In this document: piece after piece, positions 6,752 to 26,145 of the stretch
Position numbering within the stretch: the stretch's first letter is position 1
Layout of the letters: the number at the start of each line of letters is the position of its first letter
NCBI GenBank assembly: GCA_036351015.1
Contig: JAZBOG010000013.1
Coordinates: 2,998-66,997 of the forward strand
From: Bacteroidales bacterium
Lineage (GTDB): Bacteria; Bacteroidota; Bacteroidia; Bacteroidales; UBA12077
DNA: 64,000 bases
Direction of reading: 5' to 3'
Translations under genes and position numbers: made by a program
The notes under the pieces: generated by a model
Told to the model about the DNA's origin: nothing
Seen by the model: only the letters and a program-made list of their open reading frames with translations
Databases searched by the model: none

Positions 6752-8545
6752 ATGATATTAGCACGTATTGACTGGGCAATTGTGTTTTCATTCTTTGTTC
6801 TTTCCCTGCTGATAGGGATCTATTCGGCCAGAAAAGCAGGAAAGAGTGCCTCGGAGTTTTTCCTTTCCAACCGGAACATGCCCTGGTGGTTACTGGGGGT
6901 ATCGATGGTAGCCACTACTTTCTCGTGTGATACCCCGAACCTGGTTACCGATATTGTACGGCAGGACGGGGTGTATGGTAACTGGGCCTGGTGGGCCTTC
7001 CTATTAACCGGTATGCTTACCGTCTTTATCTATGCCAAACTATGGCGCCGGTCGGGGGTAATGACAGATCTTGAATTTTATGAAATCCGCTACAGTGGAA
7101 AAATAGCTGCTTTTTTACGGGGATTCAGGGCCATATACCTGGGAGCCTTTTTTAATATTTTTATCATTGCTACGGTTTCGTTGGCATTAATAAAGATCAG
7201 TGCGGTCATGCTTCAATGGCCCCCTGTAAAAACGATTCTTATTGCTTCCCTGATCACTGTTATATACAGCACACTGGGCGGTTTACGGGGAATTTTACTC
7301 ACCGACTTTTTCCAGTTTTTTATGTCGATGGCAGGTGCCATTGGGGCTGCGATCATTGTATTAAAGATGCCCGAAGTAGGAGGGATGGAAGGTTTGGTTT
7401 CTCATCCCGAAGTCATTCCAAAACTCCGGTTTTTGCCTGATTTTTCCAATACCGAAGCATTAATAACCCTGTTGGTATTGCCCCTTGCCGTTCAATGGTG
7501 GAGCGTTTGGTACCCCGGGGCTGAACCCGGCGGAGGAGGATATATTGCCCAGCGTATGCTATCAGCACGTAACGAGAAGGGATCAATTCAGGCGACCTTG
7601 TTTTTCAACGTGGCTCATTATGCATTACGTCCCTGGCCATGGATCATTGTTGCCCTGGGCTCAGTCATTATCTTTCCTGACCTGATCAGTTTACAGCAAA
7701 CCTTTCCCAACATTGATCCTCAGCTGGTAAAACACGACCTGGCTTATCCGGCTATGCTCTCCATGCTTCCCAAAGGATTGCTGGGGCTGGTGGTGGCTTC
7801 GCTTATTGCCGCCTACATGTCTACGGTATCCACCCAGTTAAACTGGGGAGCTTCTTACCTGGTCAACGATTTTTATCAACGTTTTGTAAACACGAAAGCC
7901 TCTGAAAAACAGCTGGTAAGAGCCGGAAGGTTATTCACCGTTCTCCTGATGCTCTTGGCAGGTTTATTTACCCTGATCCTGAGTAATGCATTACAGGCTT
8001 TTCACATTATCCTGCAAATTGGCGCAGGTACCGGGCTGATTTTTATTCTTCGCTGGTTTTGGTGGAGGATCAATGCATTATCCGAGATTACAGCCATGGT
8101 GGTATCTTTCCTGGTTGCCCTCTTTTTACAGTTTGTCTATCCGCATTTGGGATATCCGCCCCTTTCAGGGCCGATCCAGATGCTCATCGGAGTCTTTATT
8201 ACCACGATGGCCTGGTTATCGGTTGCCCTTTTAACCCGGCCCACCGATGATAAAACCCTGATTCGGTTCTACCGGTTGGTTCAGCCAGGCGGACCGGGAT
8301 GGAAAAAAATGATTGCCAGAGCCCGGAAACAAGGCGTCGTGTTTAGCGACGAAAAGGAAAAAAGCTGGGATGTCCCCGCAGGGATCCTGTGCATGGTAAT
8401 CGGTGCCTTTGCCATCTATTCAGCACTCTTTGCTACCGGGTACTGGATCTACGGTCAATATCTTCAGGCTACAATTTTAACATTTGTGTCTATTTTGGCT
8501 ATCTTTGCCCTTCTTAAGTTATGGAGTAAACTCAAAATACAGTAA
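6752..8545 (+). CDS. Sodium:solute symporter (SSS) family transporter
   Basis: The 597-aa product is polytopic with about 13-14 TM segments. The pattern is SSS-like (GGGYIAQRMLSARNEK, WWxxW motifs). Confidence 0.85.
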   Translation: MILARIDWAIVFSFFVLSLLIGIYSARKAGKSASEFFLSNRNMPWWLLGVSMVATTFSCDTPNLVTDIVRQDGVYGNWAWWAFLLTGMLTVFIYAKLWRRSGVMTDLEFYEIRYSGKIAAFLRGFRAIYLGAFFNIFIIATVSLALIKISAVMLQWPPVKTILIASLITVIYSTLGGLRGILLTDFFQFFMSMAGAIGAAIIVLKMPEVGGMEGLVSHPEVIPKLRFLPDFSNTEALITLLVLPLAVQWWSVWYPGAEPGGGGYIAQRMLSARNEKGSIQATLFFNVAHYALRPWPWIIVALGSVIIFPDLISLQQTFPNIDPQLVKHDLAYPAMLSMLPKGLLGLVVASLIAAYMSTVSTQLNWGASYLVNDFYQRFVNTKASEKQLVRAGRLFTVLLMLLAGLFTLILSNALQAFHIILQIGAGTGLIFILRWFWWRINALSEITAMVVSFLVALFLQFVYPHLGYPPLSGPIQMLIGVFITTMAWLSVALLTRPTDDKTLIRFYRLVQPGGPGWKKMIARARKQGVVFSDEKEKSWDVPAGILCMVIGAFAIYSALFATGYWIYGQYLQATILTFVSILAIFALLKLWSKLKIQ

Positions 8546-9503: not shown

Positions 9504-10580
9504 ATGAAAACCATTCAAGCAGTTTTTGAACAATTTAACCTGGAAGGAACCTATCAAGGGGCCACCCCCTACGGTTCAGGACACATTAACGATACCTGGC
9601 TGGTAAAGACCTGCGGAACAGATGCTCCTGACTATATCCTACAACGAAACAATCCCCGGGTATTTACGGATATTCCCCGAATGCTCAGGAATATCAACAG
9701 GATTACCGAATACCTGCAGGCCCGGGAACCGGGATCCCCAAACCTGATCCTATACCCATCTCTCCGTGGAGAGCCTTTTGTTCAGGATAAAGAGGCTTAT
9801 TACTGGAGTGCTTATCCTTTTATCGATGGCGTAAGCTATAACCTTGTCCAAAATGAGCAACTGGCCCTGGAAGGAGGGAAGGCCTGGGGTAATTTTCTCC
9901 GTCAGGTAAAGGATTTTCCTATCCACCAGCTCCAAGTGACGCTTCCGGGTTTTCATAACCTGCAGGAACGATTAATCCAATGGGAGTCAGCCCTTGAGAA
10001 TGACAATAAGCAGCGGGCCAATGCCCGGCCTGAAATGATTGACTTTGTGCTTTCCCGTAAAAAAAGGATGCTTGAATACGAACAGGGCTTATTGAATTCA
10101 TCGGTTCCTCTCCGGGTAACCCATAATGATACAAAATTCAATAACATTTTATTTGACCGGAACGATCATTATCTAACGGTTATTGATTTAGGAACGATTA
10201 TGCCCGGGTATATGGCTTATGATTTCGGGGATGCAATACGTACCATTTGTAATACTTCGGCCGAAGATGAAACAGATCTCAATAAAACGTCCTTTTACCT
10301 GCCTTATTTTAAAGCGTTTACCCGGGGGTATCTTTCCCTTACCCAATCCTTTTTAACCGACCAGGAGCTTGATTTTCTGCCTTTTTCTCCCTTGTTCATG
10401 ACCTACCTGATTGGTTTACGGTTTTTTACCGATTATTTACGCAACGACATCTATTTTAAAACCCGTTATCCGGAGCATAACCTTCAACGAGCCAGGGTCC
10501 AGTTTCAACTGCTGCGTAGTATGGAAAAACAGCAACCCGCCATGATACAATCAATTCAGCACCTTCGTTACCACGGGTAG
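9504..10580 (+). CDS. APH-family phosphotransferase, NahK/anomeric sugar kinase-like
   Basis: It carries the Brenner motif HNDTKFNN (HxDxxxxN) followed by IDLGT (a DxG-like metal site). Its size (358 aa) and context next to a nucleotidyltransferase fit this call. Confidence 0.7.
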   Translation: MKTIQAVFEQFNLEGTYQGATPYGSGHINDTWLVKTCGTDAPDYILQRNNPRVFTDIPRMLRNINRITEYLQAREPGSPNLILYPSLRGEPFVQDKEAYYWSAYPFIDGVSYNLVQNEQLALEGGKAWGNFLRQVKDFPIHQLQVTLPGFHNLQERLIQWESALENDNKQRANARPEMIDFVLSRKKRMLEYEQGLLNSSVPLRVTHNDTKFNNILFDRNDHYLTVIDLGTIMPGYMAYDFGDAIRTICNTSAEDETDLNKTSFYLPYFKAFTRGYLSLTQSFLTDQELDFLPFSPLFMTYLIGLRFFTDYLRNDIYFKTRYPEHNLQRARVQFQLLRSMEKQQPAMIQSIQHLRYHG

Positions 10581-11853: not shown

Positions 11854-12297
11854 TCAAATGATTTTCAGTTTTATCCATCCAAGAGTATAAATCAATGACC
11901 ACAACACTTGTCCTAAAAACAGGTAAAGATAGCTGCTCTTTTTTTTACCGTAATATTTTACATTCAAAAAAGCACCTACAGGAATCGACAGGATCACAGG
12001 GGTTAAAATAACAATTCCGGGGAGACCGTATTTTTTCTTAAGAATGATTAACCGGCGGTTACGTTTACCAAATGTTTTTCGTTTTTTTGTTTTGCAGCGC
12101 CAATTCTCCGGCCAGTAATGATCAAATAAGGAAAGTAAGCCCCTGGATAAGAAAGAAAAGAAGATTAACCCGAGAAGTCCGCCAAGGTTAGTATACAAAA
12201 GGGTTTCGTAAGAAGACATCTGAAATACATAGATGGCAACAGGAAAGGTAGCTGCAAATTTCCAGGTAGCAGAAAAGATAACAATCAGTTCTTTCAT
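11854..12297 (-). CDS. Small integral membrane protein, unknown function
   Basis: It has about 4 hydrophobic segments with a basic loop (KTKKRKTFGKRNRR). Confidence 0.5.
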   Translation of the reverse strand: MKELIVIFSATWKFAATFPVAIYVFQMSSYETLLYTNLGGLLGLIFFSFLSRGLLSLFDHYWPENWRCKTKKRKTFGKRNRRLIILKKKYGLPGIVILTPVILSIPVGAFLNVKYYGKKKSSYLYLFLGQVLWSLIYTLGWIKLKII

Positions 12298-12389
12298 GAT
12301 GAATAAAATTACTGAATTATAACAAATTTATTATTTTTTATTGATTTTAATTTACATCTTTGTATCTATATTATTAGATATTTACAATT

Positions 12390-12638
12390 ATGAAGTTTAA
12401 AAAATTAGAATTACAGGACGAGACCAACTGGCTGAAAAGGTTGATTAAATCACCCCAGACCAAAAAGACTATCTTGTTTACCATCCTGGGTGCGGGAGCA
12501 GGATTTCTCTATTTTTATATAAGTAAAGGAAGAGCGATGAATATCATGGAACCTGGCGAAATTATCCAAAGCCTGTTGGTGGGTGGTTTTTTTGGTTTTT
12601 TTATTACCAACAGCCCGTGTGCCAGGAACCGGTGTTAG
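12390..12638 (+). CDS. Small membrane protein, unknown function
   Basis: The 82-aa product has two hydrophobic segments. It is the last gene before the AT-rich spacer that opens the accessory block. Confidence 0.4.
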   Translation: MKFKKLELQDETNWLKRLIKSPQTKKTILFTILGAGAGFLYFYISKGRAMNIMEPGEIIQSLLVGGFFGFFITNSPCARNRC

Positions 12639-12797
12639 TTAGACAACAATATCTTAAATTGCTTTGAACTAAATACTGAGAATTTACAGGTAGATTAATT
12701 AATATTCCAATTCCTGCAGTATACTCAGGATTTAAAATTTTACAAATTCCTTATTATTAAACATTTTAATATAACTTCTTTTTTTGCTCTTTTTTGT

Positions 12798-12805
12798 TAA
12801 CTTTG
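12798..12805 (+). promoter_or_regulatory. Bacteroidota-type -7 promoter box (TAACTTTG) upstream of hsdR
   Basis: It matches the TAnnTTTG consensus and ends 35 nt upstream of the hsdR ATG, inside an AT-rich spacer. Confidence 0.35.
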
Positions 12806-12840
12806 AATTTACTGATTAATACCTTGTAGATTCAAGTATA

Positions 12841-15636
12841 ATGAGCCCGACAGAAGCAGTAACCAGAAAACAAATCATTGATATCAAGTTAAAAGATGCT
12901 GGGTGGAACGTGAAAGACCGTTCACAAGTAATCGAAGAATTTGATATTGAAGTAGGACTTCCTGAAGGTGTTTCTGAACCGCGAACAGAATATGATGGTC
13001 ATCAGTTCAGTGATTATGTGTTAGTAGGAAAAGATGGCAAACCGCTTGCCGTTGTTGAAGCAAAAAGAACTACCAAAGATGCTGAAATAGGTCGTGAACA
13101 AGCTAAACAATACTGCCAAAATATCGCAAATCAGAATGGGGGTGAACTTCCATTTTGTTTTTATACTAATGGATTAGAAATCTACTTTTGGGATTTAGGG
13201 AATTATCCACCTCGAAAAGTGGTTGGATTTCCTACCAGGGAAGACTTAGAACGTTATCAATACGTAAGAAAAAACAGGAAACCTTTGGCTGATGAACTAA
13301 TCAATCCGAATATTGCCGGGCGTGATTACCAAATGACTGCCATTAGAACTGTGATGGAATCTTTAGAAAAAAAACATCGCAAGTTTTTATTGGTAATGGC
13401 TACTGGAACAGGTAAAACAAGAACCTGTATTGCATTTGTGGATGCTTTAATGCGAGCTGGTTGGGCAGAACGAGTTTTATTCCTTGTTGATCGTATTGCT
13501 TTAAGAAATCAAGCAATAGATGCTTTTAAAGAACATCTGCCTAATGAACCACGTTGGCCCAATCCTGAAGATAAAGAGATTGAAAAGAATCGTCGAATAT
13601 ATGTATCGACATACCCAACGATGTTGAATATAATCCGCAGTGATAAAGCTTTATCTCCGCATTTTTTCGATCTAATAGTAATAGACGAGAGCCATCGTTC
13701 CATTTACAATACGTATCAGGAAGTATTGGACTATTTCAATACCATAAGCCTGGGTTTAACAGCTACACCAACCGATGTAATCGATCATAATACATTTGAT
13801 CTGTTCAATTGTGAAGATGGCATGCCAACGTTTGCCTATTCTTATGAAGAAGCTATAAACCACGAACCACCATACTTATGCGATTTTCAAGTAATGAAAT
13901 TGCACACTAAATTTCAGGTTGAAGGAATTAGTAAACGTACAATCAGCCTTGAAGATCAAAAAAGATTGATTCTGGAAGGAAAAGATGTAGAAGAAATCAA
14001 TTTTGAAGGAACGGACCTTGAAAAGAAAGTAATCAATAAGGGTACAAATACGCTTATCGTAAAGCAGTTTATGGAAGAGTGTATTAAAGATCCTAATGGT
14101 GTATTACCTGGTAAAACCATTTTCTTTTGCTCTTCGATGAAACATGCCCGAAGGATTGAAAAAATATTTGATGCACTATATCCTGAATACAAAGGCGACC
14201 TGGCAAAAGTAATTGTTTCAGACGACCCACGAGTTTATGGCAAAGGTGGATTATTGCACCAGTTTACTCACAGCGATATGCCCCGAGTGGCAATTAGTGT
14301 AGATATGCTTGATACAGGGATTGATGTGCGTGAGATTGTAAATCTTGTATTTGCAAAACCTGTATATTCCTATACCAAATTCTGGCAAATGATTGGTCGT
14401 GGAACTCGTTTATTAGAACCCAAGAAAATCAAACCCTGGTGCCCTGAAAAGGATGTTTTCCTGATTATTGATTGCTGGGATAACTTCGAGTATTTCAAAT
14501 TAACTCCAAAAGGAAAAGAATTAAAACCATCATTGCCTTTACCGGTTAAATTGGTTGGTATCAGATTGGATAAAATCGAAAAAGCAAAAGATACCAATCA
14601 TACTGAAATAGCTCAAAAAGAAATTGAAAAACTACGAAATCAGATAAGCGAATTACCTGAAAAATCCATTGTTATTCAGGATGCTGCAACAGATTTAGAG
14701 AAATTAAAAGATGAAAATTTCTGGATCAATCTATCTCATGATAAAATTGAATTCTTGAGAACCAATATCAAACCATTATTCAGAACAGTATCACAAAGCG
14801 ATTTTAAACGCATGCGTTTTGAAAAAGATGTATTGGAGACATCATTGGCTCACCTGGAAGAAGAAAAAGAAAAATTCGATGCTTTAAAGGATAATTTAAC
14901 CGAACAGATCAGTGAATTACCATTATCGGTTAATATTGTTGCACTTGAAAAGGATTTAATCAAAAAAGCTCAAACCAATCAATATTGGGTTACAGTAACG
15001 GATGATTTAATGGATGAACTGATTGAACGAATTGGACCTTTGATGAAATACAGGCAAGGAGAAGAAAAAACGGGTCCTGTAAGGCTTAATCTACAAGACG
15101 AAATCGTAAAAAAAGAGTTTGTTGAATTTGGTCCTGAACATGAATCGGTGAGTATTACCAAATACCGTGAAATGGTGGAAGAAAAGATCCGTGAACTGAC
15201 TGCCAATAATCCTATCCTTCAAAAATTAAAGGAAGGAATGGATATCAACGAGCAGGAAGCCGAACTCCTGGCTGAGCAGTTACACGATGAAGATCCTTAC
15301 ATTACTCTTGATTTGCTGCAAAAAGTGTATAAAAACCGCAGAGCTAAGTTTATCCAGTTTATCAAGCATATTTTAGGAATTGAAGTCTTGAAAAGTTTTC
15401 CTGAAACCGTAAGTGAATCTATAGATCAATTTATTCAGGAACATAATTATTTATCGACACGACAATTGGAGTTTATTAATCTTTTAAGAGATTATATCAT
15501 ACAACGTGGAAAAATTCAAAAAAAGGACCTTATTCAGGCTCCATTTACGGTAATTCATCCCCAAGGTATACGAGGTGTGTTTTCACCCAAAGAAATTGAA
15601 GAAATTCTTACACTTACACAAGAACTGGTAGCTTAA
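12841..15636 (+). CDS. hsdR: Type I restriction enzyme R subunit (EcoEI/IB-like C-terminus)
   Basis: The N-terminal HSDR_N nuclease has SDYVLVG...AVVEAKR (D...ExK). Helicase motifs are MATGTGKT (I), VIDESHR (II) and LGLTATP (III). The C-terminal block (STRQLEFINLLRDYIIQRG...FTVIHPQGIRGVF) resembles the EcoEI R C-terminal domain. Confidence 0.92.
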   Translation: MSPTEAVTRKQIIDIKLKDAGWNVKDRSQVIEEFDIEVGLPEGVSEPRTEYDGHQFSDYVLVGKDGKPLAVVEAKRTTKDAEIGREQAKQYCQNIANQNGGELPFCFYTNGLEIYFWDLGNYPPRKVVGFPTREDLERYQYVRKNRKPLADELINPNIAGRDYQMTAIRTVMESLEKKHRKFLLVMATGTGKTRTCIAFVDALMRAGWAERVLFLVDRIALRNQAIDAFKEHLPNEPRWPNPEDKEIEKNRRIYVSTYPTMLNIIRSDKALSPHFFDLIVIDESHRSIYNTYQEVLDYFNTISLGLTATPTDVIDHNTFDLFNCEDGMPTFAYSYEEAINHEPPYLCDFQVMKLHTKFQVEGISKRTISLEDQKRLILEGKDVEEINFEGTDLEKKVINKGTNTLIVKQFMEECIKDPNGVLPGKTIFFCSSMKHARRIEKIFDALYPEYKGDLAKVIVSDDPRVYGKGGLLHQFTHSDMPRVAISVDMLDTGIDVREIVNLVFAKPVYSYTKFWQMIGRGTRLLEPKKIKPWCPEKDVFLIIDCWDNFEYFKLTPKGKELKPSLPLPVKLVGIRLDKIEKAKDTNHTEIAQKEIEKLRNQISELPEKSIVIQDAATDLEKLKDENFWINLSHDKIEFLRTNIKPLFRTVSQSDFKRMRFEKDVLETSLAHLEEEKEKFDALKDNLTEQISELPLSVNIVALEKDLIKKAQTNQYWVTVTDDLMDELIERIGPLMKYRQGEEKTGPVRLNLQDEIVKKEFVEFGPEHESVSITKYREMVEEKIRELTANNPILQKLKEGMDINEQEAELLAEQLHDEDPYITLDLLQKVYKNRRAKFIQFIKHILGIEVLKSFPETVSESIDQFIQEHNYLSTRQLEFINLLRDYIIQRGKIQKKDLIQAPFTVIHPQGIRGVFSPKEIEEILTLTQELVA

Positions 15637-15692
15637 TGTGTTTAAATGAATTTTATATGGAAAATATTGCCTTAAAAATGAATAACTGGTTT

Positions 15693-15757
15693 TTATCGAT
15701 TAATAAGTCGATAAATATTTTTTATTCCATTAAAAATCGATAAATTTACTATATTTG
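15693..15757 (+). promoter_or_regulatory. Internal promoter/operator-like region in the hsdR-to-cassette spacer
   Basis: There is an inverted repeat TTATCGA-N8-TCGATAA (15693-15714) and a third ATCGATAAA half-site (15736-15744). A TATATTTG box (15750-15757, TAnnTTTG) ends 15 nt upstream of the ATG at 15773. Confidence 0.4.
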
Positions 15758-15772
15758 TAAAAAATTATAGTT

Positions 15773-16465
15773 ATGAAAAAAGCAGTAATTTCAGGAGACA
15801 TAGTTGCATACACAAGCTTAAGAACTAAAGATAAAGATTTAATTGACAGTGCTTTAAAGAATCTAATAAAAGAGTTAGAAGCAAGGTTTGATGCATTTTC
15901 AAGAATAATAAAAGGTGATTATATAGAATGCTATGTGCCTGATCCTAAAAATGCTTTAAGAGCTGCATTATGTATAAAAAGCTATATAAAATCCATATCA
16001 CAGGATATAAAAGATAAAAATAGGCGCTTAAACGCTTTTAAAACACATGGTATACGATTAGCGATTGGGATAGGGGAAATAAACCGATTTGATAAGGAAA
16101 AAGGAATAATTGATGGTGAAGCGATTTATTTTTCCGGAAGAATCATTAACAAAAGTAGAACCACTTCAGATAAAAAGAGAATCGTTATTAAGAAGACATT
16201 ATTCATTCAATCAAATAATCAGGATTTTGACCAAACAGTGGAAGTTATTCTCGGGCTCCTGGATGTATTCATAAGCAAAGCTACAGCTAAGCAATGTTCT
16301 GTTTTATACCTAAAATTAATAGGCAATACAGAGGATGAAATAACCGAAAAACTGAAATTAAAGTCACAGTCAACAGTTAACAAACATTCTACATCCATAG
16401 GCTGGAATGCTATAGAAGATGCTGTATTGTGGTTTGAAAAACAATTAATGGAAAATAATAAATAA
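15773..16465 (+). CDS. SatD-like protein: nucleotidyl-cyclase-homology core + C-terminal HTH
   Basis: AVISGDIVAYTSL aligns residue-for-residue with the class III cyclase motif xVLFADIVGFTxL. IIKGDYIECYV supplies the second GD. RLAIGIGEI resembles RIGIHTGEV, and GEAIYFSGRI resembles GdtVNlAARl but with Tyr in place of the Asn. The C-terminus (KQCSVLYLKLIGNTEDEITEKLKLKSQSTVNKH) is LuxR/sigma-r4-like. Confidence 0.7.
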   Translation: MKKAVISGDIVAYTSLRTKDKDLIDSALKNLIKELEARFDAFSRIIKGDYIECYVPDPKNALRAALCIKSYIKSISQDIKDKNRRLNAFKTHGIRLAIGIGEINRFDKEKGIIDGEAIYFSGRIINKSRTTSDKKRIVIKKTLFIQSNNQDFDQTVEVILGLLDVFISKATAKQCSVLYLKLIGNTEDEITEKLKLKSQSTVNKHSTSIGWNAIEDAVLWFEKQLMENNK

Positions 16466-17196
16466 TGGATTTTTATAAACTTTTTATTTTACAACTTATC
16501 GGGCATATTCTGGCAGATTTCTTTTTTCAGAGTGATTTATGGTCCAGGCATAAAAGAAGGTATGGATTTCGATCAAAAATTATGTACTGGCATGTTTTGA
16601 TTGTATTTCTAACTTCTTATGTACTTTCTTTTCAGTGGAATTTTATTTGGGCATCAGGCCTTATTCTTTTTATACACCTGCTCGTTGATGCTTTAAAGCT
16701 TAATATAGGCAGAATAAAAATTGACAAATCAAATCCATTCAGGAATTTTACATTTTTTATCGACCAAATATTACATATACTAACCATCTGGTTTGTAGTT
16801 TATATTTTCTCAAAATATGCTACAATAAATCCTGTAATAAACATTTCTGTAGCAAATTCTACCTTAGTTATCGTACTCGCATATTTACTTTGCTTAAAAC
16901 CTACAAATATTCTTATCAGAGAGGTATTCTCCATATATCGAATAAAAATTAAGAAGCAACCTGATGAAGATCTGTTAAATGCCGGTAAACTCATTGGAAA
17001 TATCGAGCGCATTTTGACTTTAACGCTTCTTCTTATTGGCCAGTACGAAGCCATAGGTTTTATCATTGCCGGTAAGTCTATTTTACGTTACGAGGGAGTA
17101 AAAACATCCAAAACAGAATATGTGCTTATAGGTACATTGCTAAGTTTTGGAATCGCCATATTAATTGGAATAATAGTTACCAAAATAAATATATAG
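16465..17196 (+). CDS. DUF3307-like polytopic membrane protein
   Basis: The start overlaps the upstream stop (TAATG). The N-terminal HILADFFFQ and the later GKLIGNIERILTLTLL...AGKSILRY...EYVLIGTLLSF fit my memory of the DUF3307 pattern. It has about 6-7 hydrophobic segments and ends 9 nt before hsdM. Confidence 0.7.
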   Translation: MDFYKLFILQLIGHILADFFFQSDLWSRHKRRYGFRSKIMYWHVLIVFLTSYVLSFQWNFIWASGLILFIHLLVDALKLNIGRIKIDKSNPFRNFTFFIDQILHILTIWFVVYIFSKYATINPVINISVANSTLVIVLAYLLCLKPTNILIREVFSIYRIKIKKQPDEDLLNAGKLIGNIERILTLTLLLIGQYEAIGFIIAGKSILRYEGVKTSKTEYVLIGTLLSFGIAILIGIIVTKINI

Positions 17197-17205
17197 CCAA
17201 CATCC

Positions 17206-18795
17206 ATGTTACAAAATAATGCTCAAATAAAATCATTAATCGATAAGCTTTGGAATCAGTTCTGGAGTGGTGGTATATCCAATCCTTTAACAGCCATTGA
17301 ACAAATTACCTATTTATTGTTCATGAAACGTTTAGATGATCTGGATTCGAAACGTAAAGCGGATGCCGAATTTACAGGCGAAACCTATAAATCGAAATTT
17401 GTAGGAGAGTGGTTGCCCCCCGGAATGGAAGATAAAAAGGAAAATTATGTGGATAAAGACAGCCTGCGATGGAGCAATTTCAAGCATATGAAAGCCGAAG
17501 ATATGCTTCAGCATGTGCAACTAAAAGTGTTTCCTTTCCTGAAAACCTTGAATGGAGAAACATCACAGTTTACGAAGCACATAGCAAATGCCGTGTTTAT
17601 TATTCCTAAAGCAAGTTTACTGGTTGAAGCCATTAAAACCATCGAAGAGATTTTTATTGAGATGGATAAGGATGCCGAAAAAGGTGGACAGGCATTTCAG
17701 GATATACAGGGTGATGTGTACGAATACCTGTTGAGTGAAATAGCAGCGGCAGGTAAAAACGGGCAATTCCGAACTCCACGCCATATTATTAAATTAATGG
17801 CTGAATTGGTGCAACCCCAATTAGGGCAGCGTATTGCCGACCCAGCATGTGGCACAGGCGGTTTCTTATTGGGAGCATACCAGTACATTGTGACACAGCT
17901 AAATAAAGATAAAAGCAAGTTAAAACCTGACGAAGATGGTTTTTTCCGTAGCTCTGTGAGTGGAATGCTAACTGAAAAAGTAAAAGATATTCTTGACCAG
18001 AGTATTTTTGGCTATGATGTAGATACTACCATGGTTCGCTTAGGATTAATGAACCTGATGATGCATGGTTTTGAAGACCCTAACATTGATTATACCGATA
18101 CTTTAAGCAAAAGCTACAACGAAGAAAACACCTACGATATAGTGATGGCAAACCCGCCGTTTACAGGCAGTATTGATAAAGGCGATATTAACGAAAGCTT
18201 TAAAACTGCTACCACCAAAACCGAATTATTGTTTGTTGAGCGAATTTTTAACATGCTAAAAATAGGTGGAACAGCAGCCGTGGTTGTGCCACAAGGCGTT
18301 TTATTTGGCTCCGGCAAAGCATTCAAACAAGTTCGGCAATTAATTATAGAGCAAGCCGAATTAAAAGCAGTAATAGCGGTGCCAAGCGGAGTATTCAAAC
18401 CTTATGCAGGAGTAAGTACCGCTATATTAGTATTTACCAAAGGTGGTGAAACAAATGATGTTTGGTTTTACGATATGCAAAGCGATGGATACAGTTTAGA
18501 TGATAAACGAGCAAAGCTGGATAATAACGGTGATTTACAGGATATTGTTGTACAATTTAACAATAGAAATAGAAATAAAAAAGAAAACAGTAAAAACAAC
18601 AGCCGCAAAGCAAAACATTTCTTTGTGCCTAAAAAGGATATTGTAGATGAAGGCTATGATTTAAGCATATCCCGTTACAAAGAAGATAATTTTGAAGAAA
18701 TAGAATATGAATCTCCTATGAAAATTCTTGAAAAATTGGAAAAAATAGAGAATGAGATAACCCAGGAGTTTAATGTCATAAAGGAGATGTTTTAA
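17206..18795 (+). CDS. hsdM: Type I R-M N6-adenine DNA methyltransferase subunit
   Basis: It has the HsdM_N pattern (LWNQFWSGGISNPLTAIEQITYLLFMKRLDD), SAM motif I DPACGTGGFL and catalytic motif IV NPPF (VMANPPFTGS). Confidence 0.95.
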   Translation: MLQNNAQIKSLIDKLWNQFWSGGISNPLTAIEQITYLLFMKRLDDLDSKRKADAEFTGETYKSKFVGEWLPPGMEDKKENYVDKDSLRWSNFKHMKAEDMLQHVQLKVFPFLKTLNGETSQFTKHIANAVFIIPKASLLVEAIKTIEEIFIEMDKDAEKGGQAFQDIQGDVYEYLLSEIAAAGKNGQFRTPRHIIKLMAELVQPQLGQRIADPACGTGGFLLGAYQYIVTQLNKDKSKLKPDEDGFFRSSVSGMLTEKVKDILDQSIFGYDVDTTMVRLGLMNLMMHGFEDPNIDYTDTLSKSYNEENTYDIVMANPPFTGSIDKGDINESFKTATTKTELLFVERIFNMLKIGGTAAVVVPQGVLFGSGKAFKQVRQLIIEQAELKAVIAVPSGVFKPYAGVSTAILVFTKGGETNDVWFYDMQSDGYSLDDKRAKLDNNGDLQDIVVQFNNRNRNKKENSKNNSRKAKHFFVPKKDIVDEGYDLSISRYKEDNFEEIEYESPMKILEKLEKIENEITQEFNVIKEMF

Positions 18796-20046
18796 ATGAA
18801 GATTCTCATTCGAAAACTTGAAGAAATAGCAGATGTTATAGCTGGTCAGTCGCCACCTTCAGTAACTTATAATGAGAAAGGAGATGGTTTGCCATTTTTT
18901 CAAGGGAAAACTGATTTTGGAGAAAAGCATCCCACAATAAGGATTTGGTGTTCAGAACCTAAAAAAATTGCACTCCCAAACGATATTCTGATATCTGTTC
19001 GAGCACCTGTTGGTCCTGTGAATATTGCAAATAAGAAATCATGTATTGGAAGGGGTTTAAGTGCAATCAGAACTAAAGAAGGTAATAGCATAGATTTCTT
19101 ATTTTATTTTTTAAAATCAAATGAAAGATTAATTGCAAAAAATGCATCAGGCTCAACTTTTAGTGCAATAACTCAAAAGGATTTAAAAGAATTAAAAATA
19201 CCAATCCCTGAAAAACTTAAAGATCAAATTCACATAGCCAATGTATTATCCCGAGCAGAAACATTAATTACCAAACGCAAAGAAAGTATTCAGTTACTGG
19301 ATGAACTTCTGAAATCTACCTTTTTGGATATGTTTGGTGATCCGGTTAGAAATGAAAAAGGGTGGGAGAAAAAAGCTACTATTTCATATGCTGATTGTAT
19401 TGTTCCTGGAAGAGACAAACCAAAAAGTTTTACTGGAGATATTCCGTGGGTTACTACTGATGATCTAGAACATTTATCAACAACAATAAAGTCAAAAAAG
19501 GATATTGGACTTTTAAGAGATGAAATAAAGCAAGTAAAAGCAAGATTAATTCCTAAAGACAGTGTTCTGATGACTTGTGTGGGTGATTTAGGAGTTATAT
19601 CATTAGCTGGGCAAGATATGGTAGTAAATCAACAATTACATTCTTTTCAGTGTAAAGAAGATATTAACAATAAATTCTTAATGTTTGCATTGTCTTATCA
19701 GAAAAAATATATGTACAGAAAAGCTTCAAAAACGACTGTTCCTTACATGAATAAGACTATATGCAATAGCATTCCAGTAATTAAGCCGCCATTGGAATTA
19801 CAAAACAAATTTGCTCAAATAGTTGAAAAAGTAGAAAAAATCAAAACCAAATACCAGGAAGGCTTGCAAGAACTGGAAAACCTGTATGCTTCGTTGAGCC
19901 AAAAAGCTTTTTCATCTGCCGGAAATTTATTGAAGGCAGGTAAAGGTGAGTTGGATTTGAGTAAGATGGAAATAGAGCAGGAGAGATTGGATATAGCTGC
20001 GGAAGAAGGAGTGGGGTATGGGAAAAAGAGTCATCTAAAAAAGTAA
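18796..20046 (+). CDS. hsdS: Type I R-M specificity subunit (two target-recognition domains)
   Basis: The ATG directly abuts the hsdM stop. There are two TRD-like halves separated by the conserved helical spacer (IANVLSRAETLITKRKESIQLLDELLKSTFLDMFGDP). The C-terminal conserved helix is FAQIVEKVEKIK...LYASLSQKAF. Confidence 0.9.
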   Translation: MKILIRKLEEIADVIAGQSPPSVTYNEKGDGLPFFQGKTDFGEKHPTIRIWCSEPKKIALPNDILISVRAPVGPVNIANKKSCIGRGLSAIRTKEGNSIDFLFYFLKSNERLIAKNASGSTFSAITQKDLKELKIPIPEKLKDQIHIANVLSRAETLITKRKESIQLLDELLKSTFLDMFGDPVRNEKGWEKKATISYADCIVPGRDKPKSFTGDIPWVTTDDLEHLSTTIKSKKDIGLLRDEIKQVKARLIPKDSVLMTCVGDLGVISLAGQDMVVNQQLHSFQCKEDINNKFLMFALSYQKKYMYRKASKTTVPYMNKTICNSIPVIKPPLELQNKFAQIVEKVEKIKTKYQEGLQELENLYASLSQKAFSSAGNLLKAGKGELDLSKMEIEQERLDIAAEEGVGYGKKSHLKK

Positions 20047-20047
20047 A

Positions 20048-20070
20048 AGGCTGCCATTTCTGACAGCCCT
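20048..20070. terminator. Hairpin between convergent hsdS and a small minus-strand ORF
   Basis: GGCTGCCATTTCTGACAGCC forms an imperfect 8-bp stem followed by CTTTTATTT. Confidence 0.5.
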
Positions 20071-20075
20071 TTTAT

Positions 20076-20219
20076 TTAACCTACTTTTCTATACTCTGTG
20101 TTATCACATTTTGGACAAGGTGGTAGTGTATCACTATCATCATCCAGTATTACTATTTGAAAACACTTTGTACATTGATACCTGCCTTTTCCAGGCTTCT
20201 CTCCAGTTCTGTAAATCAT
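20076..20219 (-). CDS. Small zinc-ribbon protein (47 aa), absent from the ORF track
   Basis: I translated it by hand as MIYRTGEKPGKGRYQCTKCFQIVILDDDSDTLPPCPKCDNTEYRKVG. The CxxC...CxxC arrangement resembles FmdB-type zinc ribbons. Confidence 0.5.
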   Translation of the reverse strand: MIYRTGEKPGKGRYQCTKCFQIVILDDDSDTLPPCPKCDNTEYRKVG

Positions 20220-20248
20220 TTTTTTTTTAAGATTTTAAAAGTTTAACA

Positions 20249-20416
20249 TTATTTTTCTTTCCGTACACCCTTAAATGGGTCTTCATCATGTTTTACATCC
20301 ATAAACTTACCATCTGGACCACGTTTAATCCAATGTCCATTAGGATGCTTAAACTGACTACGATCACGAACAGCTCCAACCCGGTGATTGTCACCGTATG
20401 GTTTATTTCTCGCCAT
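20249..20416 (-). CDS. Small basic hypothetical protein (55 aa), absent from the ORF track
   Basis: I translated it by hand as MARNKPYGDNHRVGAVRDRSQFKHPNGHWIKRGPDGKFMDVKHDEDPFKGVRKEK. The composition is more protein-like than the antisense 70-aa track ORF at 20288-20500. Confidence 0.45.
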   Translation of the reverse strand: MARNKPYGDNHRVGAVRDRSQFKHPNGHWIKRGPDGKFMDVKHDEDPFKGVRKEK

Positions 20417-21171
20417 TTTAATAGATTTTTCTCATCTTCTACAACCAGTAGGAGAAGACTAACCACCAAGGTCTTTTCTGTTCTTTTGATTTTTAATTAA
20501 ACTTTTCTTAAATTTGACTTGCACATTCAAAATGAAAAATTAATTAAGGCCAGGTCAAATTTCCTTGTAAAACGCACCTGGCTTTACTATATACAAAAAT
20601 ACCGCTTAATCCCTTTATTTCCGAGAGGTACAAAGCAAAAGTTTTCCACAAGGCACTATTTTAACTGCACTATTATCAATTAGTTATAATTATTTGTGTT
20701 AATTTTTAATAATCTATAACAACAACAAAATCAATATTTTATGACTTTTCTTTAAAACAAGCAATTTAAAACCCTTTAATACTCTTTTTATCAAGATCTT
20801 ATAACATATATGTGTTGAAAACTTCCTGATCAATTCAAAATTAAAGAATCATGAAATAGTAATCTTACAGTTTAAACTTCCTAAACCCGCATTGTTTTTT
20901 TAGATAAGTTTTGTAGTAAAAGTGGCTTTTACAAAGAATTAGTAGCTTAATGCTTTGTTGATTCAGTCAAACATTTAAAATATCAAATTTAGTTAATGAG
21001 TAAATTTGAATTATTAAAGATAATAACGTCTTTAATAACAAATGCTAAATACTTGGATATTAAAAAATAAAGATATAATTTCATAATTCCTGCCGCCCAA
21101 TTAGGGCATACATAAGAACGAAATTTGGATTGGAACCGGAGTGTTAATTTATTAATTAATATAAATATATC

Positions 21172-23121
21172 ATGAAAGTTCTTACTAAATCAAGATTTAA
21201 ATTAGGACTAGAATGTCCAAACAAGCTATTTTATACACAAAAAAAGGAATATGCCAACACGAAGGAGTTAGATCCGTTTCTTGAAGCTTTAGCCCAAGGT
21301 GGTTTCCAAGTTGAAGAACTCGCAAGAATGCATTACCAAAATGGAATCTTAATTGAAGGTAATGATGGAGACTATGAATATCTATGGAATAGAACATTAG
21401 AGTTGCTGAAACAAGATGATGTTATAATCTATGAAGCAGCATTTTTATATAATGAATTGTTTGTTCGAACTGATATCTTGGTAAAAAAAGGAAATAATAT
21501 TGAATTAATTGAAGTAAAGGCAAAATCATTTGATCCGAATGATGATAATATATTCATTGGCAAAAGAGGAGGTATGGTAAGTAAATGGAAAGCATACTTA
21601 TTCGATGTGGCTTTTCAAAAATATGTCATTCAGCAATGTTTCCCAGAATGGAATATTAATTCATTCATAATGATGGCTGATAAAACAAAAAAAGCGAGTA
21701 TAAATGGTTTAAATCAACTTTTTAGAATAAGCAGTAAAACGGATCATAGAACAGGTATTATAAATAAGGCTAATTCAATAGAAGATACTGGAGATTCAGT
21801 TTTAGGAAGAAAAAATATAACTCAAATAGTATCTGAAATTGAATCTGATAAGCACAAATATCATGATAATTTAACATTTATTGAATCAATAAATCTATTT
21901 AAGGATTTATATCTTAAAGATGAATATTGCAGTTGGCCAGCATCTTTTGGAGCTTGCAAAAATTGTGAGTTTAAAAGTTCGGATGATACGCTTAAATCAG
22001 GTTTTAAGGAGTGCTTTAAAAAACAGTTTAATTGGAGTGAATATGACTTTAATAAACCTAATATTCTAGATATATATGATTTTCGAAAAGGACATAAATT
22101 ATTTGCTGAAGGTATATTCTTTAAGGATGAATTAACCGAAGAAAAAATTGATCTAAAAACCGATCCTAAAAAACTTACTAATTCTCATAGACAATGGTTA
22201 CAAATTGAAAAAGAAGTAAGAAATGATAATTCCTTTTATATAGATAAAGATGGACTAAAGGAAACTATGAATGAATGGACTTTTCCTTTACACTTCATAG
22301 ATTTTGAGACCAGTGCAGTTGCGCTGCCTTTTAATGAAGGTAGAAAGCCATATGAGCAAATTGCTTTTCAATTTTCTCACCATGTATATCACAAAGATGG
22401 AAAAATAGAACATGCTAATGAGTACATAAACAATCAACCTGGTGTTTTTCCAAATTTTGAATTTATTAGGGAATTAAAAAAAGCGTTGGGAAATGATAAT
22501 GGTACAGTTTTCAGGTACGCTGATCATGAAAACAGCATTCTTAATGCAATTTATTCTCAATTACTAGACTCGAATGAAAGTGATAAAGAAGAGTTAATGA
22601 ATTTTATTCAAGACATATCACATTCAACCAAAGGAAATGCGATAGAATGGGAAGGGGCAAGGGATATGGTGGACCTTTGTAAAGTTGAGAAATACTTTTA
22701 TTATAATCCTTTTACAAAAGGATCTAATTCAATCAAACAAGTATTACCGGCTTCATTGAGTTCGAGTAGTTATCTACAAGAAAAGTATTCAAAGCCTATT
22801 TCACAAATCAACTTAACTAGTAAAAATTTTAGTAGTGATCATATATGGTTAAAAATAGAAAATGGTGCAGTAGAAAATCCATATAAATTACTTCCACCCG
22901 TATTTAATGAATGGAGTGATGATCAAGTTGAAAATGTATTATCAGAAATTGAAGATATTGCTGATGGTGGTGCTGCTCTTACAGCTTACGGCAAGTTACA
23001 ATATACCGATATGGAGCAGGAAGAAATTGATGCAATTACATCTGCTTTATTAAAATATTGCGAATTAGACACATTAGCAATGGTAATGATATATGAACAT
23101 TTTAAAGAAATAACCGAATAA
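21172..23121 (+). CDS. DUF2779-like protein: Cas4/RecB-like PD-(D/E)XK nuclease domain fused to a DEDD (DnaQ-like) exonuclease-like domain
   Basis: RTDILVKKGNNIELIEVKAKS gives the D...ExK motif. The Cys set C15 ... CSWPASFGACKNCEF...KEC is arranged like a Cas4 Fe-S cluster. In the C-terminal half, HFIDFETS gives DxE, YADHENSILNAI is HN-like and CELDTLAMV supplies an Asp. Confidence 0.75.
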   Translation: MKVLTKSRFKLGLECPNKLFYTQKKEYANTKELDPFLEALAQGGFQVEELARMHYQNGILIEGNDGDYEYLWNRTLELLKQDDVIIYEAAFLYNELFVRTDILVKKGNNIELIEVKAKSFDPNDDNIFIGKRGGMVSKWKAYLFDVAFQKYVIQQCFPEWNINSFIMMADKTKKASINGLNQLFRISSKTDHRTGIINKANSIEDTGDSVLGRKNITQIVSEIESDKHKYHDNLTFIESINLFKDLYLKDEYCSWPASFGACKNCEFKSSDDTLKSGFKECFKKQFNWSEYDFNKPNILDIYDFRKGHKLFAEGIFFKDELTEEKIDLKTDPKKLTNSHRQWLQIEKEVRNDNSFYIDKDGLKETMNEWTFPLHFIDFETSAVALPFNEGRKPYEQIAFQFSHHVYHKDGKIEHANEYINNQPGVFPNFEFIRELKKALGNDNGTVFRYADHENSILNAIYSQLLDSNESDKEELMNFIQDISHSTKGNAIEWEGARDMVDLCKVEKYFYYNPFTKGSNSIKQVLPASLSSSSYLQEKYSKPISQINLTSKNFSSDHIWLKIENGAVENPYKLLPPVFNEWSDDQVENVLSEIEDIADGGAALTAYGKLQYTDMEQEEIDAITSALLKYCELDTLAMVMIYEHFKEITE

Positions 23122-23123
23122 TT

Positions 23124-24131
23124 ATGCCAAAAAATAAAGAAGCACTCAAAAGATATAGAATTATACACAATGTCTTAAGAAGGGGTGGGAAGCACAAATC
23201 AAGCAGAATAATGGAGATCTGTAATGATGCAGGAATACCAGTTAAAATAAGAACAATTCAAAAAGATTTAGAAGATTTAGCGGAAGACACTGAATTAGGT
23301 TTTTTTCTTCCAATAAAAAAAGATGAGAGTTCCAAAACCTACTATTATGAAGAAATACCTGATTATATATTTCCATCGTTAGAGTTAGAGCCTGGCGAAA
23401 TAAATGCATTACTTTTTTATGCAAAAACAATTAGCCAGTATAAAGATTATCCTTTATTTAATGAAATATCAAAAGCAGTTCAGAAAGTACTAGAAAACTC
23501 AAATATTGCCCCACATACTAGAGAGTTATTTGAAAAAGAGACATTACTAGAAACAGAAAAACACCCTTCAATTGGTGGCATTGAGCTTATTGCAGACATT
23601 TTAGAAGCCATTACAACCAAAAGGGTTATTCAAGTAGATTATCAAAGATTTGATGACTTTATACGCAAACATGAAGTCAAACCAATTTTACTGAAAGAAG
23701 ATAAAAAATTATGGTATATAATTGGTTATAGCTTAGATAAAAATTCAATAATTACACTTGCTTTAGATAGAATAATTGATGTAACTGTCACAGAAAAGAA
23801 ATTCAGGAAAATAGAATTCAATAGCACAGAATATTTTAAATATTCATTTGGAATTACGGTTTTAAATCATGAACCTATTGAAGTTGTAATCTCATTTAAT
23901 CCTGAACAAGGAAATTACTTAAAAACACTACCAATACACTCAACCCAAACTATCTTATCAGATACAGATAGGGAATTTGTAATTTCAGTTAAAGTAATTC
24001 CATCATATGAGTTTTTCTCTAAAATAAGTAGTTATGGTGATCAAGCAACCGTAATTTCTCCAGAAACTATCCGCGATTATTTTATTGAGTCTATTACCAA
24101 CTCCTTAAAAAACTACGAATCAATACTATAG
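23124..24131 (+). CDS. WYL-domain transcriptional regulator (wHTH-WYL-WCX; BrxR/CapW-like architecture)
   Basis: It has an N-terminal HTH (RYRIIHNVLRRGGKHKSSRIMEICNDAGIPVKIRTIQKDLEDL), a WYL core (KKLWYIIGYSLDKNSIITLALDRI) and a C-terminal extension. The start lies 3 nt after the upstream stop. Confidence 0.85.
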   Translation: MPKNKEALKRYRIIHNVLRRGGKHKSSRIMEICNDAGIPVKIRTIQKDLEDLAEDTELGFFLPIKKDESSKTYYYEEIPDYIFPSLELEPGEINALLFYAKTISQYKDYPLFNEISKAVQKVLENSNIAPHTRELFEKETLLETEKHPSIGGIELIADILEAITTKRVIQVDYQRFDDFIRKHEVKPILLKEDKKLWYIIGYSLDKNSIITLALDRIIDVTVTEKKFRKIEFNSTEYFKYSFGITVLNHEPIEVVISFNPEQGNYLKTLPIHSTQTILSDTDREFVISVKVIPSYEFFSKISSYGDQATVISPETIRDYFIESITNSLKNYESIL

Positions 24132-24163
24132 TAAAAGAAACGAAAAATATTTATGATTTATTT

Positions 24164-24203
24164 ACATGGCGCAAGTACACTGCGCCATGTCGTATTTTCT
24201 TTG
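24164..24203 (+). terminator. Perfect 10-bp GC-rich hairpin with T-rich tail between the WYL gene and the Ubl operon
   Basis: ACATGGCGCA-AGTACAC-TGCGCCATGT (24164-24190) is followed by CGTATTTTCTTTG. It could be a terminator, an operator or both. Confidence 0.55.
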
Positions 24204-24239
24204 TAATGTAAAATTAGGTTTAATTTAAATTTTAGGACA

Positions 24240-24521
24240 ATGGTAACTAAAGAAAACAAAAATGATGCCCCAGGGCAAAACAAAGAATTTACGATTTATG
24301 TAAATGGAACGCCAGAAACATGGCATAGTAAAGAAATCTCATTCAGCGAAGTGGTATCACTGGCTTTTGAAAAACCACCTTATGGTGTAAATACGGAATA
24401 TCAAGTAGTTTTTTCAGAAGCATTGGGTCCATTAAAGGAAGGAACTTTGGCTGAAGGTCAAACGGTGCATATTAAAAAGGAAGGGACGCAATTCGATGTT
24501 AGCGCAACTGATAAGTCATAA
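24240..24521 (+). CDS. Small beta-grasp, ubiquitin-like (multiubiquitin-domain-like) protein
   Basis: The 93-aa product reads EFTIYVNGTPETWHSKEISFSEVVSLAF...YQVVF...GTLAEGQTVHIKKEGTQFDV, which fits my memory of the prokaryotic multiubiquitin domain pattern. It ends ...SATDKS with no terminal Gly. Confidence 0.65.
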   Translation: MVTKENKNDAPGQNKEFTIYVNGTPETWHSKEISFSEVVSLAFEKPPYGVNTEYQVVFSEALGPLKEGTLAEGQTVHIKKEGTQFDVSATDKS

Positions 24522-26029: not shown

Positions 26030-26033
26030 AGAA

Positions 26034-26060: not shown

Positions 26061-26145
26061 AATGTTATGACTTAGAATACAGTAATTTAATTTGTGTTTT
26101 GTATTCTTATTAGTAACTTTAAATAAAATACAAATATGCCTAGTT

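Follow-up and report, generated by a model that had tools for sequence, protein, structure and literature searches.

Introduction

Type I restriction–modification (R-M) operons can carry genes that are not R-M components: in EcoprrI, the additional gene encodes PrrC, an anticodon nuclease that the R-M proteins keep latent. Here we analyse a two-gene cassette that lies inside a Type I R-M operon on contig JAZBOG010000013.1 of a Bacteroidales bacterium, within a 64-kb stretch of DNA (hereafter the window) whose positions are used throughout. Its two open reading frames encode a divergent SatD-family protein (ORF1) and a polytopic membrane protein of the DUF3307 family (ORF2). The cassette is probably an autonomous and autoregulated module, in which a SatD-type protein combining a cyclase-homology fold with a helix-turn-helix (HTH) is joined to a DUF3307 membrane partner, and which is lodged in a Type I R-M operon in this Bacteroidales lineage. 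What is new is the pair as an obligate unit, whose range takes in Bacteroidota, Vibrio, mini-plasmids of E. coli/Klebsiella and haloarchaea, and a family-wide array of putative operators with a period of 28–29 bp.

SatD (PF16264), named after the S. mutans sat operon, and DUF3307 (PF11750) are database families without an assigned mechanism. In the literature that we found, DUF3307 is mentioned once, as a row in a phage gene table, and SatD appears by name only, SatCDE being cited merely as part of an 'acid tolerance' cluster; a study of the sat operon from 2001 reportedly assigned the phenotype to ffh. The cassette has the same two-gene layout as annotated SatD/DUF3307 pairs, and 26 of 37 ORF1 homologues match SatD, although ORF1 itself does not score.

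Among better described systems, the class III nucleotidyl cyclases, whose motif positions are established, share their fold with ORF1 (Rv1900c, 1ybt; Ma1120, 4wp8; CyaB, 3r5g; bPAC, 5mbb; Foldseek probability 1.0), and in a low-confidence alignment the xxGDIxxxTxL strand, the GD hairpin and the R-x-x-I-G strand of ORF1 would put D9, D49 and R95 at metal and phosphate positions. ORF1 differs from these enzymes in lacking the transition-state Asn, in being fused to an HTH and in being paired with a membrane protein; its base-specifying residues are unassignable. Pycsar (pyrimidine cyclase system for antiphage resistance), which combines the cyclase PycC with a transmembrane or TIR effector, likewise brings together a cyclase fold and a membrane protein; its cyclic UMP (cUMP) synthase 7r65 is a weaker fold match to ORF1, and one homologous pair lies beside an annotated Pycsar-type operon. 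It differs from the cassette, where PADLOC gives no Pycsar match, ORF2 has no domain binding cyclic nucleoside monophosphates (cNMP), ORF1 carries an HTH and an operator array, and synteny is mostly with housekeeping genes.

PrrC resembles the cassette in being encoded by an extra non-R-M gene inside a Type I R-M operon, but the cassette has no ABC-ATPase or anticodon-nuclease domain, and the pair is free of R-M in the great majority of genomes and survives R-M decay. A final likeness is to ligand-sensing autoregulators, some of which reside in defence islands, such as the WYL regulators BrxR/CapW and the mycobacterial cyclase–LuxR-HTH protein Rv0386: these too combine an HTH with a small-molecule or enzymatic domain, palindromes over their own promoter and control of downstream genes, whereas the sensor domain of ORF1, as opposed to that of the WYL regulators, is a cyclase-homology fold. 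We know of no described counterpart to a periodic 28–29-bp array of 2–6 operators together with an obligate DUF3307 partner.

Results

A two-gene unit inside an intact R-M operon

The host operon encodes an intact Type I R-M system, its three genes being full length and carrying the expected Pfam and PADLOC domains. On the + strand, hsdR (12841–15636) encodes a 931-aa restriction subunit of the EcoEI/EcoAI-like kind (ResIII, 4e-42; EcoEI_R_C, 3e-27; PADLOC REase_I, 5e-162), whose similarity to the NCBIfam EcoAI/FtnUII model lies under the model cut-off. It is separated by a 136-bp spacer (15637–15772) from ORF1 (15773–16465, + strand, 230 aa), the stop codon of which overlaps the start of ORF2 (16465–17196, + strand, 243 aa) in the sequence TAATG at 16463–16467. 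Only 9 nt further on begins the methyltransferase gene hsdM (17206–18795, + strand; N6_Mtase, 4.5e-63, and HsdM_N; PADLOC MTase_I, 3.5e-173), followed by hsdS (18796–20046, + strand), a specificity subunit with two target-recognition domains (two stretches of Methylase_S; PADLOC Specificity_I, 4e-73). The initial annotation of this locus had described two non-R-M genes between hsdR and hsdM/hsdS, and every coordinate, the overlap and the 9-nt gap were verified. The arrangement is not a chance pattern of reading frames, since the nesting recurs in four other loci (L081, L093, L020 and L027) and has left remnants in two more (L041 and L095).

The cassette is indeed AT-rich relative to hsdR and hsdM, as had been remarked (27.5–33% GC against 35–39% and 36–41%, respectively). 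The further suggestion that this composition betrays an insertion is weakened because hsdS (32–34%) and the island downstream (26–32%) are equally AT-rich; with the housekeeping genes upstream of 12 kb at 43–50%, base composition sets apart the whole 12–29 kb stretch and not the cassette specifically.

To follow the pair beyond the window, we used 80 species loci, i.e., one genome per species, on contigs carrying a SatD-like gene. In 77 of them the gene immediately after the SatD-like one encodes a DUF3307 protein, and two of the three exceptions are contig ends. The pairing is also present in distant Bacteroidota, at 35–37% identity, and on replicons of Vibrio, Sphingomonas, Salinivibrio, Segatella, E. 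coli/Klebsiella and two haloarchaea. In the haloarchaea the same two-gene layout is annotated as 'SatD family protein' followed by 'DUF3307 domain-containing protein', and the SatD-like protein of the E. coli plasmid is homologous to the ORF1 family by profile comparison (hhalign 94.8%, E 5e-8). The SatD-like/DUF3307 pair is thus an obligate unit. The third exception (L022, 10001–13358) is the sole locus in which the contig continues and no DUF3307 gene is detectable, and may represent a natural 'solo' SatD.

A periodic array of inverted repeats at the cassette promoter

The cassette has a Bacteroidota-type −7 box of its own, TATATTTG (15750–15757, + strand), 15 nt before the ORF1 ATG, which probably also serves hsdMS. 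Upstream of it lies the perfect inverted repeat TTATCGA-N8-TCGATAA (15693–15714), an operator-like element and the sole copy without mismatch in the 64-kb window, and 29 bp downstream of this repeat is a second, degenerate copy (15722–15743; 3 mismatches) that covers the expected −33 region. Both the promoter box and the inverted repeat had been noticed in the sequence of the window; they turn out to be conserved features of the family.

A TAnnTTTG box precedes the SatD-like gene in 66 of the 80 loci, at 16–17 nt before the ATG in 48 of those 66, and alignment of the upstream regions on this box uncovered the arrays: two or three tandem repeats of the form TTATnnn-N8-nnnATAA that abut the promoter. 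At least one strict site is found at 63 of the 80 SatD-like genes (79%), as against 44 of 1055 other genes (4%) and 12% of shuffles, and at least two at 37 of 80 as against 3 of 1055. Adjacent sites are spaced by 29 bp from start to start in 48 of 53 cases, and within 1.35 Mb of locus DNA 62 adjacent pairs lie at a SatD promoter and one elsewhere. Similar 28–29-bp arrays precede the Vibrio, Salinivibrio and distant Bacteroidota copies, and the number of repeats per array ranges from 2 to 6 in the relatives. Haloarchaeal promoters carry multiple inverted repeats, in which no period was detected, and that of the E. coli plasmid pEC34A a single one. The longest array seen belongs to a Paludibacteraceae locus (L097, 4830–5000), where the SatD-like gene is preceded by six tandem 29-bp repeats (AATATAGCCAAAAACGTCTATATTTGCAG), each of which is itself an inverted repeat.

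The inner triplet of the repeat varies by lineage, both arms changing together, and tracks residue 204 in the putative recognition helix of the SatD-like protein (R with CAC, K with TCG/TCA, E with CCG/CCT, Q with CTA/CTT). The family combines an HTH (GerE/sigma70-r4) with palindromic sites at its own promoter, and the inverted-repeat array is a putative autoregulatory operator of ORF1.

ORF1 combines a cyclase-homology fold with a helix-turn-helix

The AlphaFold2 (AF2) model of ORF1, built on an alignment of homologues, is confident (predicted local distance difference test, pLDDT, 91.3; predicted TM-score, pTM, 0.90) and divides the protein into a cyclase-homology fold (approximately residues 1–147) and a helical HTH of the LuxR/sigma70-r4 type (approximately residues 150–228). 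All 47 Foldseek matches in the PDB at E<=1e-3 are nucleotidyl-cyclase structures, at probabilities of 0.99–1.00; 46 are class III adenylyl or guanylyl cyclase entries (5mbb, 2w01, 4wp8, 1ybt, 3r5g etc.), and the Pycsar cUMP synthase 7r65 comes at rank 47. Against the class III cyclases the target-normalised TM-score is ~0.5, over ~131–160 aligned columns.

The fold that the initial annotation had anticipated from motifs is thus recovered in the model, and its description of the N-terminal part as a class III cyclase core holds at the level of fold but not at that of significant sequence or profile similarity. Sequence searches of PDB chains with ORF1 and with the family profile returned no cyclase, and neither ORF1 nor its 37 aligned homologues gave a Pfam match to Guanylate_cyc (PF00211), so that the link between ORF1 and the cyclases is one of fold alone.

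Family membership is likewise clearer for the relatives than for ORF1, which has no match of its own above cut-off in Pfam, NCBIfam or the PDB sequences; a lenient Pfam scan gave it no SatD score even at E<=10, with GerE (0.022) as the sole match. Its 849 database relatives nevertheless include many with a precomputed PF16264 assignment, and of the 37 homologues 26 match SatD (best E 5e-8), 35 GerE and 18 Sigma70_r4_2. The proposed SatD-like identity accordingly stands for the family and not for ORF1 measured against PF16264, ORF1, which that model does not score, belonging to a divergent Bacteroidota clade, while the predicted C-terminal HTH is confirmed by the GerE matches. An exhaustive search yielded 1232 clusters (50% identity) with E<=1e-3. 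Some SatD relatives are long, and were considered as possible SatD–DUF3307 fusions; this was rejected, their C-terminal extensions being unrelated to DUF3307. One clade of such proteins (P0281, P0305, P0310, P0325 and P0341; 472–626 aa) has long low-complexity or TPR-like C-terminal extensions, as compared with the stand-alone 230-aa form.

The peptide motifs first quoted from ORF1 are present in it, and the residues they point to are strongly conserved. D9, D49, R95 and R123 are invariant in close homologues. Among 134 representatives with at most 50% mutual identity, D9 is kept in 130, G48 in 133, D49 in 132, R95 in 129, G115 in 133 and G122 in 130, and D9, G48, D49 and R95 are the only residues invariant across the bacterial and archaeal copies. 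The two Asp residues proposed as metal ligands are thus retained in the family; D9, D49 and R95 pair with the metal Asp, GD and Arg columns of the cyclases, in an alignment of low confidence (hhalign E 0.11). By motif and secondary-structure register, the position of the transition-state Asn corresponds to Y119, in agreement with the Tyr foreseen there; this column is most commonly occupied by Y (77), Q (15), R (10), H (9) and E (6), and never by N in the 134 relatives. R123, the Arg four residues past the Asn position, is kept in 106 of 134. This mapping of ORF1 onto a cyclase, including the change from Asn to Tyr, is plausible as a reading of the model, and the conservation of the Asp dyad would argue for metal–nucleotide chemistry over a dead scaffold.

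ORF2 is an all-helical DUF3307 protein

The assignment of ORF2 to DUF3307 holds firmly: the protein passes PF11750 with a score of 77.6 bits, the cut-off being 23 (E 1e-21, residues 6–118), and all 39 homologues examined match. Its AF2 model (pLDDT 88) is all-helical, with 10 helices, and finds no meaningful match in the PDB by Foldseek (best E 1.4). Lenient Pfam scans of the 39 homologues returned DUF3307 only, with no cNMP-binding or other recognised domain. Invariant polar residues, many of them in predicted helices, include D18, H43, H71, D75, D100, H104, K145, N148, E181, R182, K204, R208 and E218.

The pair occurs mainly in ordinary chromosomal contexts

In the Flavobacteriaceae (32 loci), the pair sits in a common gene order: pabB-like, FMN reductase, pair, tilS, pepX, pfkA, gapA. 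The 80 flanking genes of the other 45 loci are diverse (IMPDH five times, DAHP synthase, P-type ATPases, PAS kinases), with ResIII occurring only three times and N6_Mtase only twice. Another ordinary context is mfd/trxB/LolA, and the neighbours are also ordinary in Paludibacteraceae, where the context is stable over the many contigs sampled, in a Bacteroidia metagenome-assembled genome (MAG) and in Carboxylicivirga. About 75 of the 80 species loci have no R-M neighbour, nor do more than 90% of the sampled pairs. None of the 80 loci returned shares a genome with another, and a neighbour-joining tree of the concatenated pair broadly follows taxonomy. In the roughly 100 loci surveyed, it is chiefly an ordinary module of the chromosome. 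The survey therefore largely contradicts the defence association suggested for the pair, while leaving a minority of copies in defence or mobile DNA.

In four loci (L002, L035, L072 and L094) the pair is flanked by genes for an AddA-like helicase, a radical SAM protein and an AddB-like nuclease. This conserved block (2674–9843 in L002), comprising an AddA-like UvrD helicase, the radical-SAM protein and an AddB-like PD-(D/E)XK nuclease, lies immediately upstream of the pair, and in L072 the pair splits it. The three-gene block adjoining L002, L035 and L072 was considered as a second R-M-like system and rejected on the identity of its genes; a radical-SAM gene within an AddAB-type operon is unusual.

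Copies in defence-like surroundings include L091, next to an EcoRI-type methylase, a GmrSD/HNH protein, an SMC-like ATPase and Ntox44, and L088, in a glycosyltransferase locus with MazEF and AAA_21/DUF4276. The pair also occurs on plasmids where it is flanked by insertion sequence (IS) elements, and no relatives were found on IMG/VR viral contigs or in GenBank phages. On a plasmid of Sphingomonas insulae (L108, 5201–9652), its immediate neighbours are an annotated Pycsar effector, an E2-associated Cys-rich protein and an adenylate/guanylate cyclase, with a TIR protein, an HTH+ImmA/IrrE protein and an ATPase plus helicase upstream. On the E. coli plasmid pEC34A (NC_019077.1; L103, 1792–3481), a divergent SatD-like gene and a gene for a DUF3307 protein of 332 aa make up the whole cargo of a mobilizable ColE1-type plasmid of 3.77 kb with Rop and MobA, which has six near-identical or related counterparts in Klebsiella; a search of 5,426 complete E. 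coli genomes with the pEC34A pair gave no match.

R-M genes have decayed around the cassette in some lineages

Nesting in R-M is limited to five loci of one Bacteroidales clade: the window, L081, L093, L020 and L027. L081 has an ORF1 88% identical to that of the window and the same flanks, and the nested order is kept across R-M genes that are only 67–77% identical. In the tree of the pair, nested and AddAB-adjacent loci interleave within this clade.

Two further loci carry scars of R-M genes. A Draconibacterium MAG (L041) has an hsdR fragment (9642–9797, residues 60–111) that shortly precedes an intact SatD-like gene, a remnant of 37 aa being all that is left of DUF3307, and a Williamwhitmania contig (L095) has an N-terminal hsdM fragment (7427–7606, residues 1–56/60, a stub of 56–60 aa) right after an intact DUF3307 gene. 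Because these loci keep R-M fragments, the nested arrangement was once wider, the R-M genes having decayed around the cassette; and since the pair (L095) or the SatD-like gene (L041) outlives R-M, and most pairs have none, the cassette is independent of R-M. The back-up role of the PrrC kind put forward for it fails on this point, as the embedding in a Type I operon is seen, whereas dependence on R-M is refuted by copies that are free of R-M or have outlived it.

The R-M-nested L027 (8263–9695) and the AddAB-adjacent L035 (10001–11433) are 82% identical in the SatD-like protein and 66% in DUF3307, and the L027 DUF3307 is about as close to ORF2 of the window (68% identity) as to that of L035. 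This mosaic divergence suggests recombination within the pair, possibly linked to gain or loss of R-M. Between the window (18796–20046) and L081 (13017–14336), hsdS is ~38% identical, as compared with 88–92% for hsdR, hsdM and the cassette, which suggests a swap of specificity domains between two otherwise near-identical operons. The genes downstream also differ, those of L081 being Metallophos, IS21 and an nSTAND NTPase.

The cassette promoter probably also drives hsdMS

Over 12300–20100 on the + strand, TAnnTTTG boxes precede hsdR (12798) and the cassette (15750), and the other five lie inside hsdR, hsdM or hsdS. The window has no such box from that of the cassette to hsdM, and in the nested L081, L020 and L027 the 200 nt preceding hsdM are likewise free of one. 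The nested loci that carry hsdM number four (the window, L081, L020 and L027), and their gaps from ORF2 to hsdM measure 9, 9, 12 and 6 nt. A terminator scan made no + strand call across the cassette or the ORF2/hsdM junction; its three + strand calls in the scanned region fall inside hsdR (13132), inside hsdM (18286) and beyond hsdS (20382). The short gaps, the absence of a separate box and the absence of a terminator call make it likely that hsdMS is under the cassette promoter, supplemented by read-through from hsdR, and the read-through from the cassette originally proposed is therefore plausible. A strong G+C-rich hairpin directly after the hsdS stop (20045–20072), called on the − strand only, where its T-run lies, is likely to mark the end of the operon: the palindromic stem would also form in the + strand transcript, which may terminate there.

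Discussion

Taken together, these observations point to an autoregulated SatD/DUF3307 module that lives for the most part outside R-M. In this proposal, dimers of ORF1 would bind the inverted repeats overlapping the −33/−7 region and repress the cassette's own transcription, repression being the favoured outcome because the last site covers the expected −33 region. The cyclase-like domain would bind, and possibly convert, a metal–nucleotide and thereby modulate DNA binding, signalling to the DUF3307 partner, or both. With hsdM and hsdS under the cassette promoter, expression of methylase and specificity subunits would incidentally come under ORF1 control, a by-product of position, as the same promoter and operator exist where there is no R-M. 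The primary function of the module is independent of R-M, and its nesting here does not by itself show an immune role for the pair.

Several points weigh against this proposal. That ORF1 binds DNA, that it represses instead of activating and that it binds a nucleotide are all steps that we infer. A profile comparison of the ORF1 family with five real class III cyclase domains, retrieved from plasmids with a consensus bait, was not significant (hhalign probability 0.5%, E 0.11). The near-absolute conservation of the Asp pair hints at real enzymology, the purpose of which an account of ORF1 as a regulator does not explain, and the copies in defence islands or mobile DNA are equally unexplained if it is an ordinary one. 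The covariation of the inner triplet with residue 204 is confounded by phylogeny, and the window has one perfect and one degenerate site as compared with three sites in most relatives. Finally, our search of the literature for DUF3307, SatD, PF16264 and pEC34A found no functional study of any member.

The alternative that survives best, although we regard it as unlikely, is that the pair is a nucleotide-signalling module for anti-phage defence or abortive infection, similar to Pycsar and forming a second line of defence within R-M, its HTH merely serving autoregulation. Such a role would fit the cyclase-homology fold with its conserved metal Asp pair and the presence of 7r65, at rank 47, among the fold matches, as well as a membrane partner rich in invariant polar residues. 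It would also fit the resemblance of the window between 12.8 and 28.7 kb to a defence island, the defence-type surroundings of the Sphingomonas plasmid copy, L091 and L088, and the carriage of the pair as sole cargo of 3.77-kb mobilizable plasmids and, with flanking IS elements, on other plasmids. Against it, the PADLOC scan of ORF1 and ORF2 gives just one match, a marginal one to a CARF model (E 0.005) over the HTH region of ORF1, and ORF2 is all-helical with no cNMP-binding domain. Most copies are stable and syntenic among housekeeping genes, no genome holds two of the 80 loci and the tree broadly tracks taxonomy. Viral and phage relatives are absent from IMG/VR and the GenBank phages, and the transition-state Asn is missing. 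The kinship with Pycsar or CBASS (cyclic-oligonucleotide-based antiphage signalling system) raised in the initial annotation is thus not borne out by the PADLOC result, the architecture of ORF2 or the mostly housekeeping contexts.

A broader version, to which we give a similarly low probability, holds that SatD/DUF3307 is an ancient, unrecognised nucleotide-based conflict module of Bacteria and Archaea, serving defence or the addiction of plasmids and islands. ORF1 would polymerise on the 29-bp array and, when triggered, for instance by lost restriction or by incoming DNA, would make a non-canonical nucleotide that activates DUF3307. If this were true, the nesting in R-M, the defence-island copies and the mini-plasmid cargo would reflect function, and the syntenic Flavobacteriaceae copies would be domesticated. 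A conflict role is weakened by the survey yet kept in view, at small odds, by the minority of copies that do come from defence islands or mobile DNA.

Rather improbable in turn is an addiction module of the toxin–antitoxin kind, with ORF1 as both HTH autorepressor and antitoxin and the DUF3307 protein as a membrane toxin, the two stabilising the host DNA, be it an R-M island or a plasmid. The tight coupling of two genes that are probably autoregulated, with operators overlapping the promoter, is what such a system would look like, as are the small plasmids on which the pair is the only cargo, the several other plasmids that carry it and its proximity to IS elements; and in L041, where the SatD-like gene is intact and DUF3307 a 37-aa remnant, the genes have been lost in the order expected if ORF2 were toxic. 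Long vertical inheritance at fixed housekeeping positions across families, apparently in single copy, is on the other hand atypical of addiction modules, both proteins are large (230 and 243 aa) and have enzyme-like invariant residues, and Pfam recognises no known toxin or antitoxin domain beyond weak generic HTH matches.

That the cassette is a dedicated controller of R-M, comparable to C proteins and governing when or how strongly hsdM/hsdS is expressed in relation to hsdR, as in a burst of derepressed methylase in a new host, is very improbable. In its favour, hsdM follows ORF2 by 6–12 nt and lacks a separate promoter box wherever a nested locus includes it, no terminator was called across the cassette or the ORF2/hsdM junction, and the nested order is conserved across R-M genes 67–77% identical. 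Against it, an R-M neighbour is missing from more than 90% of sampled pairs, the cassette persists after R-M has decayed, R-M and non-R-M contexts have the same operator array and promoter, and ORF1 and ORF2 are far larger than C proteins, the membrane partner having no role in such a scheme.

Under the reading that we prefer, an autoregulated module lodged in R-M, two families that were database entries acquire a concrete and testable anatomy: a cyclase fold with a metal dyad and an HTH, a membrane partner and an operator array. The 28–29-bp periodicity of that array is conserved across bacterial phyla. This anatomy makes the family approachable experimentally, and pEC34A would offer a convenient system for the pair. 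For R-M biology, the locus presents Type I methylase and specificity genes that apparently depend on the promoter of a cassette which is unrelated to them and autoregulated. It also calls for caution, in that a defence function is not to be inferred from a single nested occurrence.

The surroundings of the cassette in the window

A candidate Bacteroidota −7 box for hsdR, TAACTTTG (12798–12805, + strand), lies 35 nt before its ATG and is proposed from the TAnnTTTG pattern. A scan of 12000–21500 against Rfam gave no match. Downstream of the R-M genes, 21172–28701 is a stretch resembling a defence island, bounded by genes for a TPR protein, gyrA and clpB. It encodes a DUF2779 protein (21172–23121), a WYL+WCX regulator (23124–24131), a DUF6791+ThiF (E1-like) protein (24496–25674), a DUF6527 protein (25655–26029) and two proteins without any Pfam match (26092–27609 and 27616–28701).

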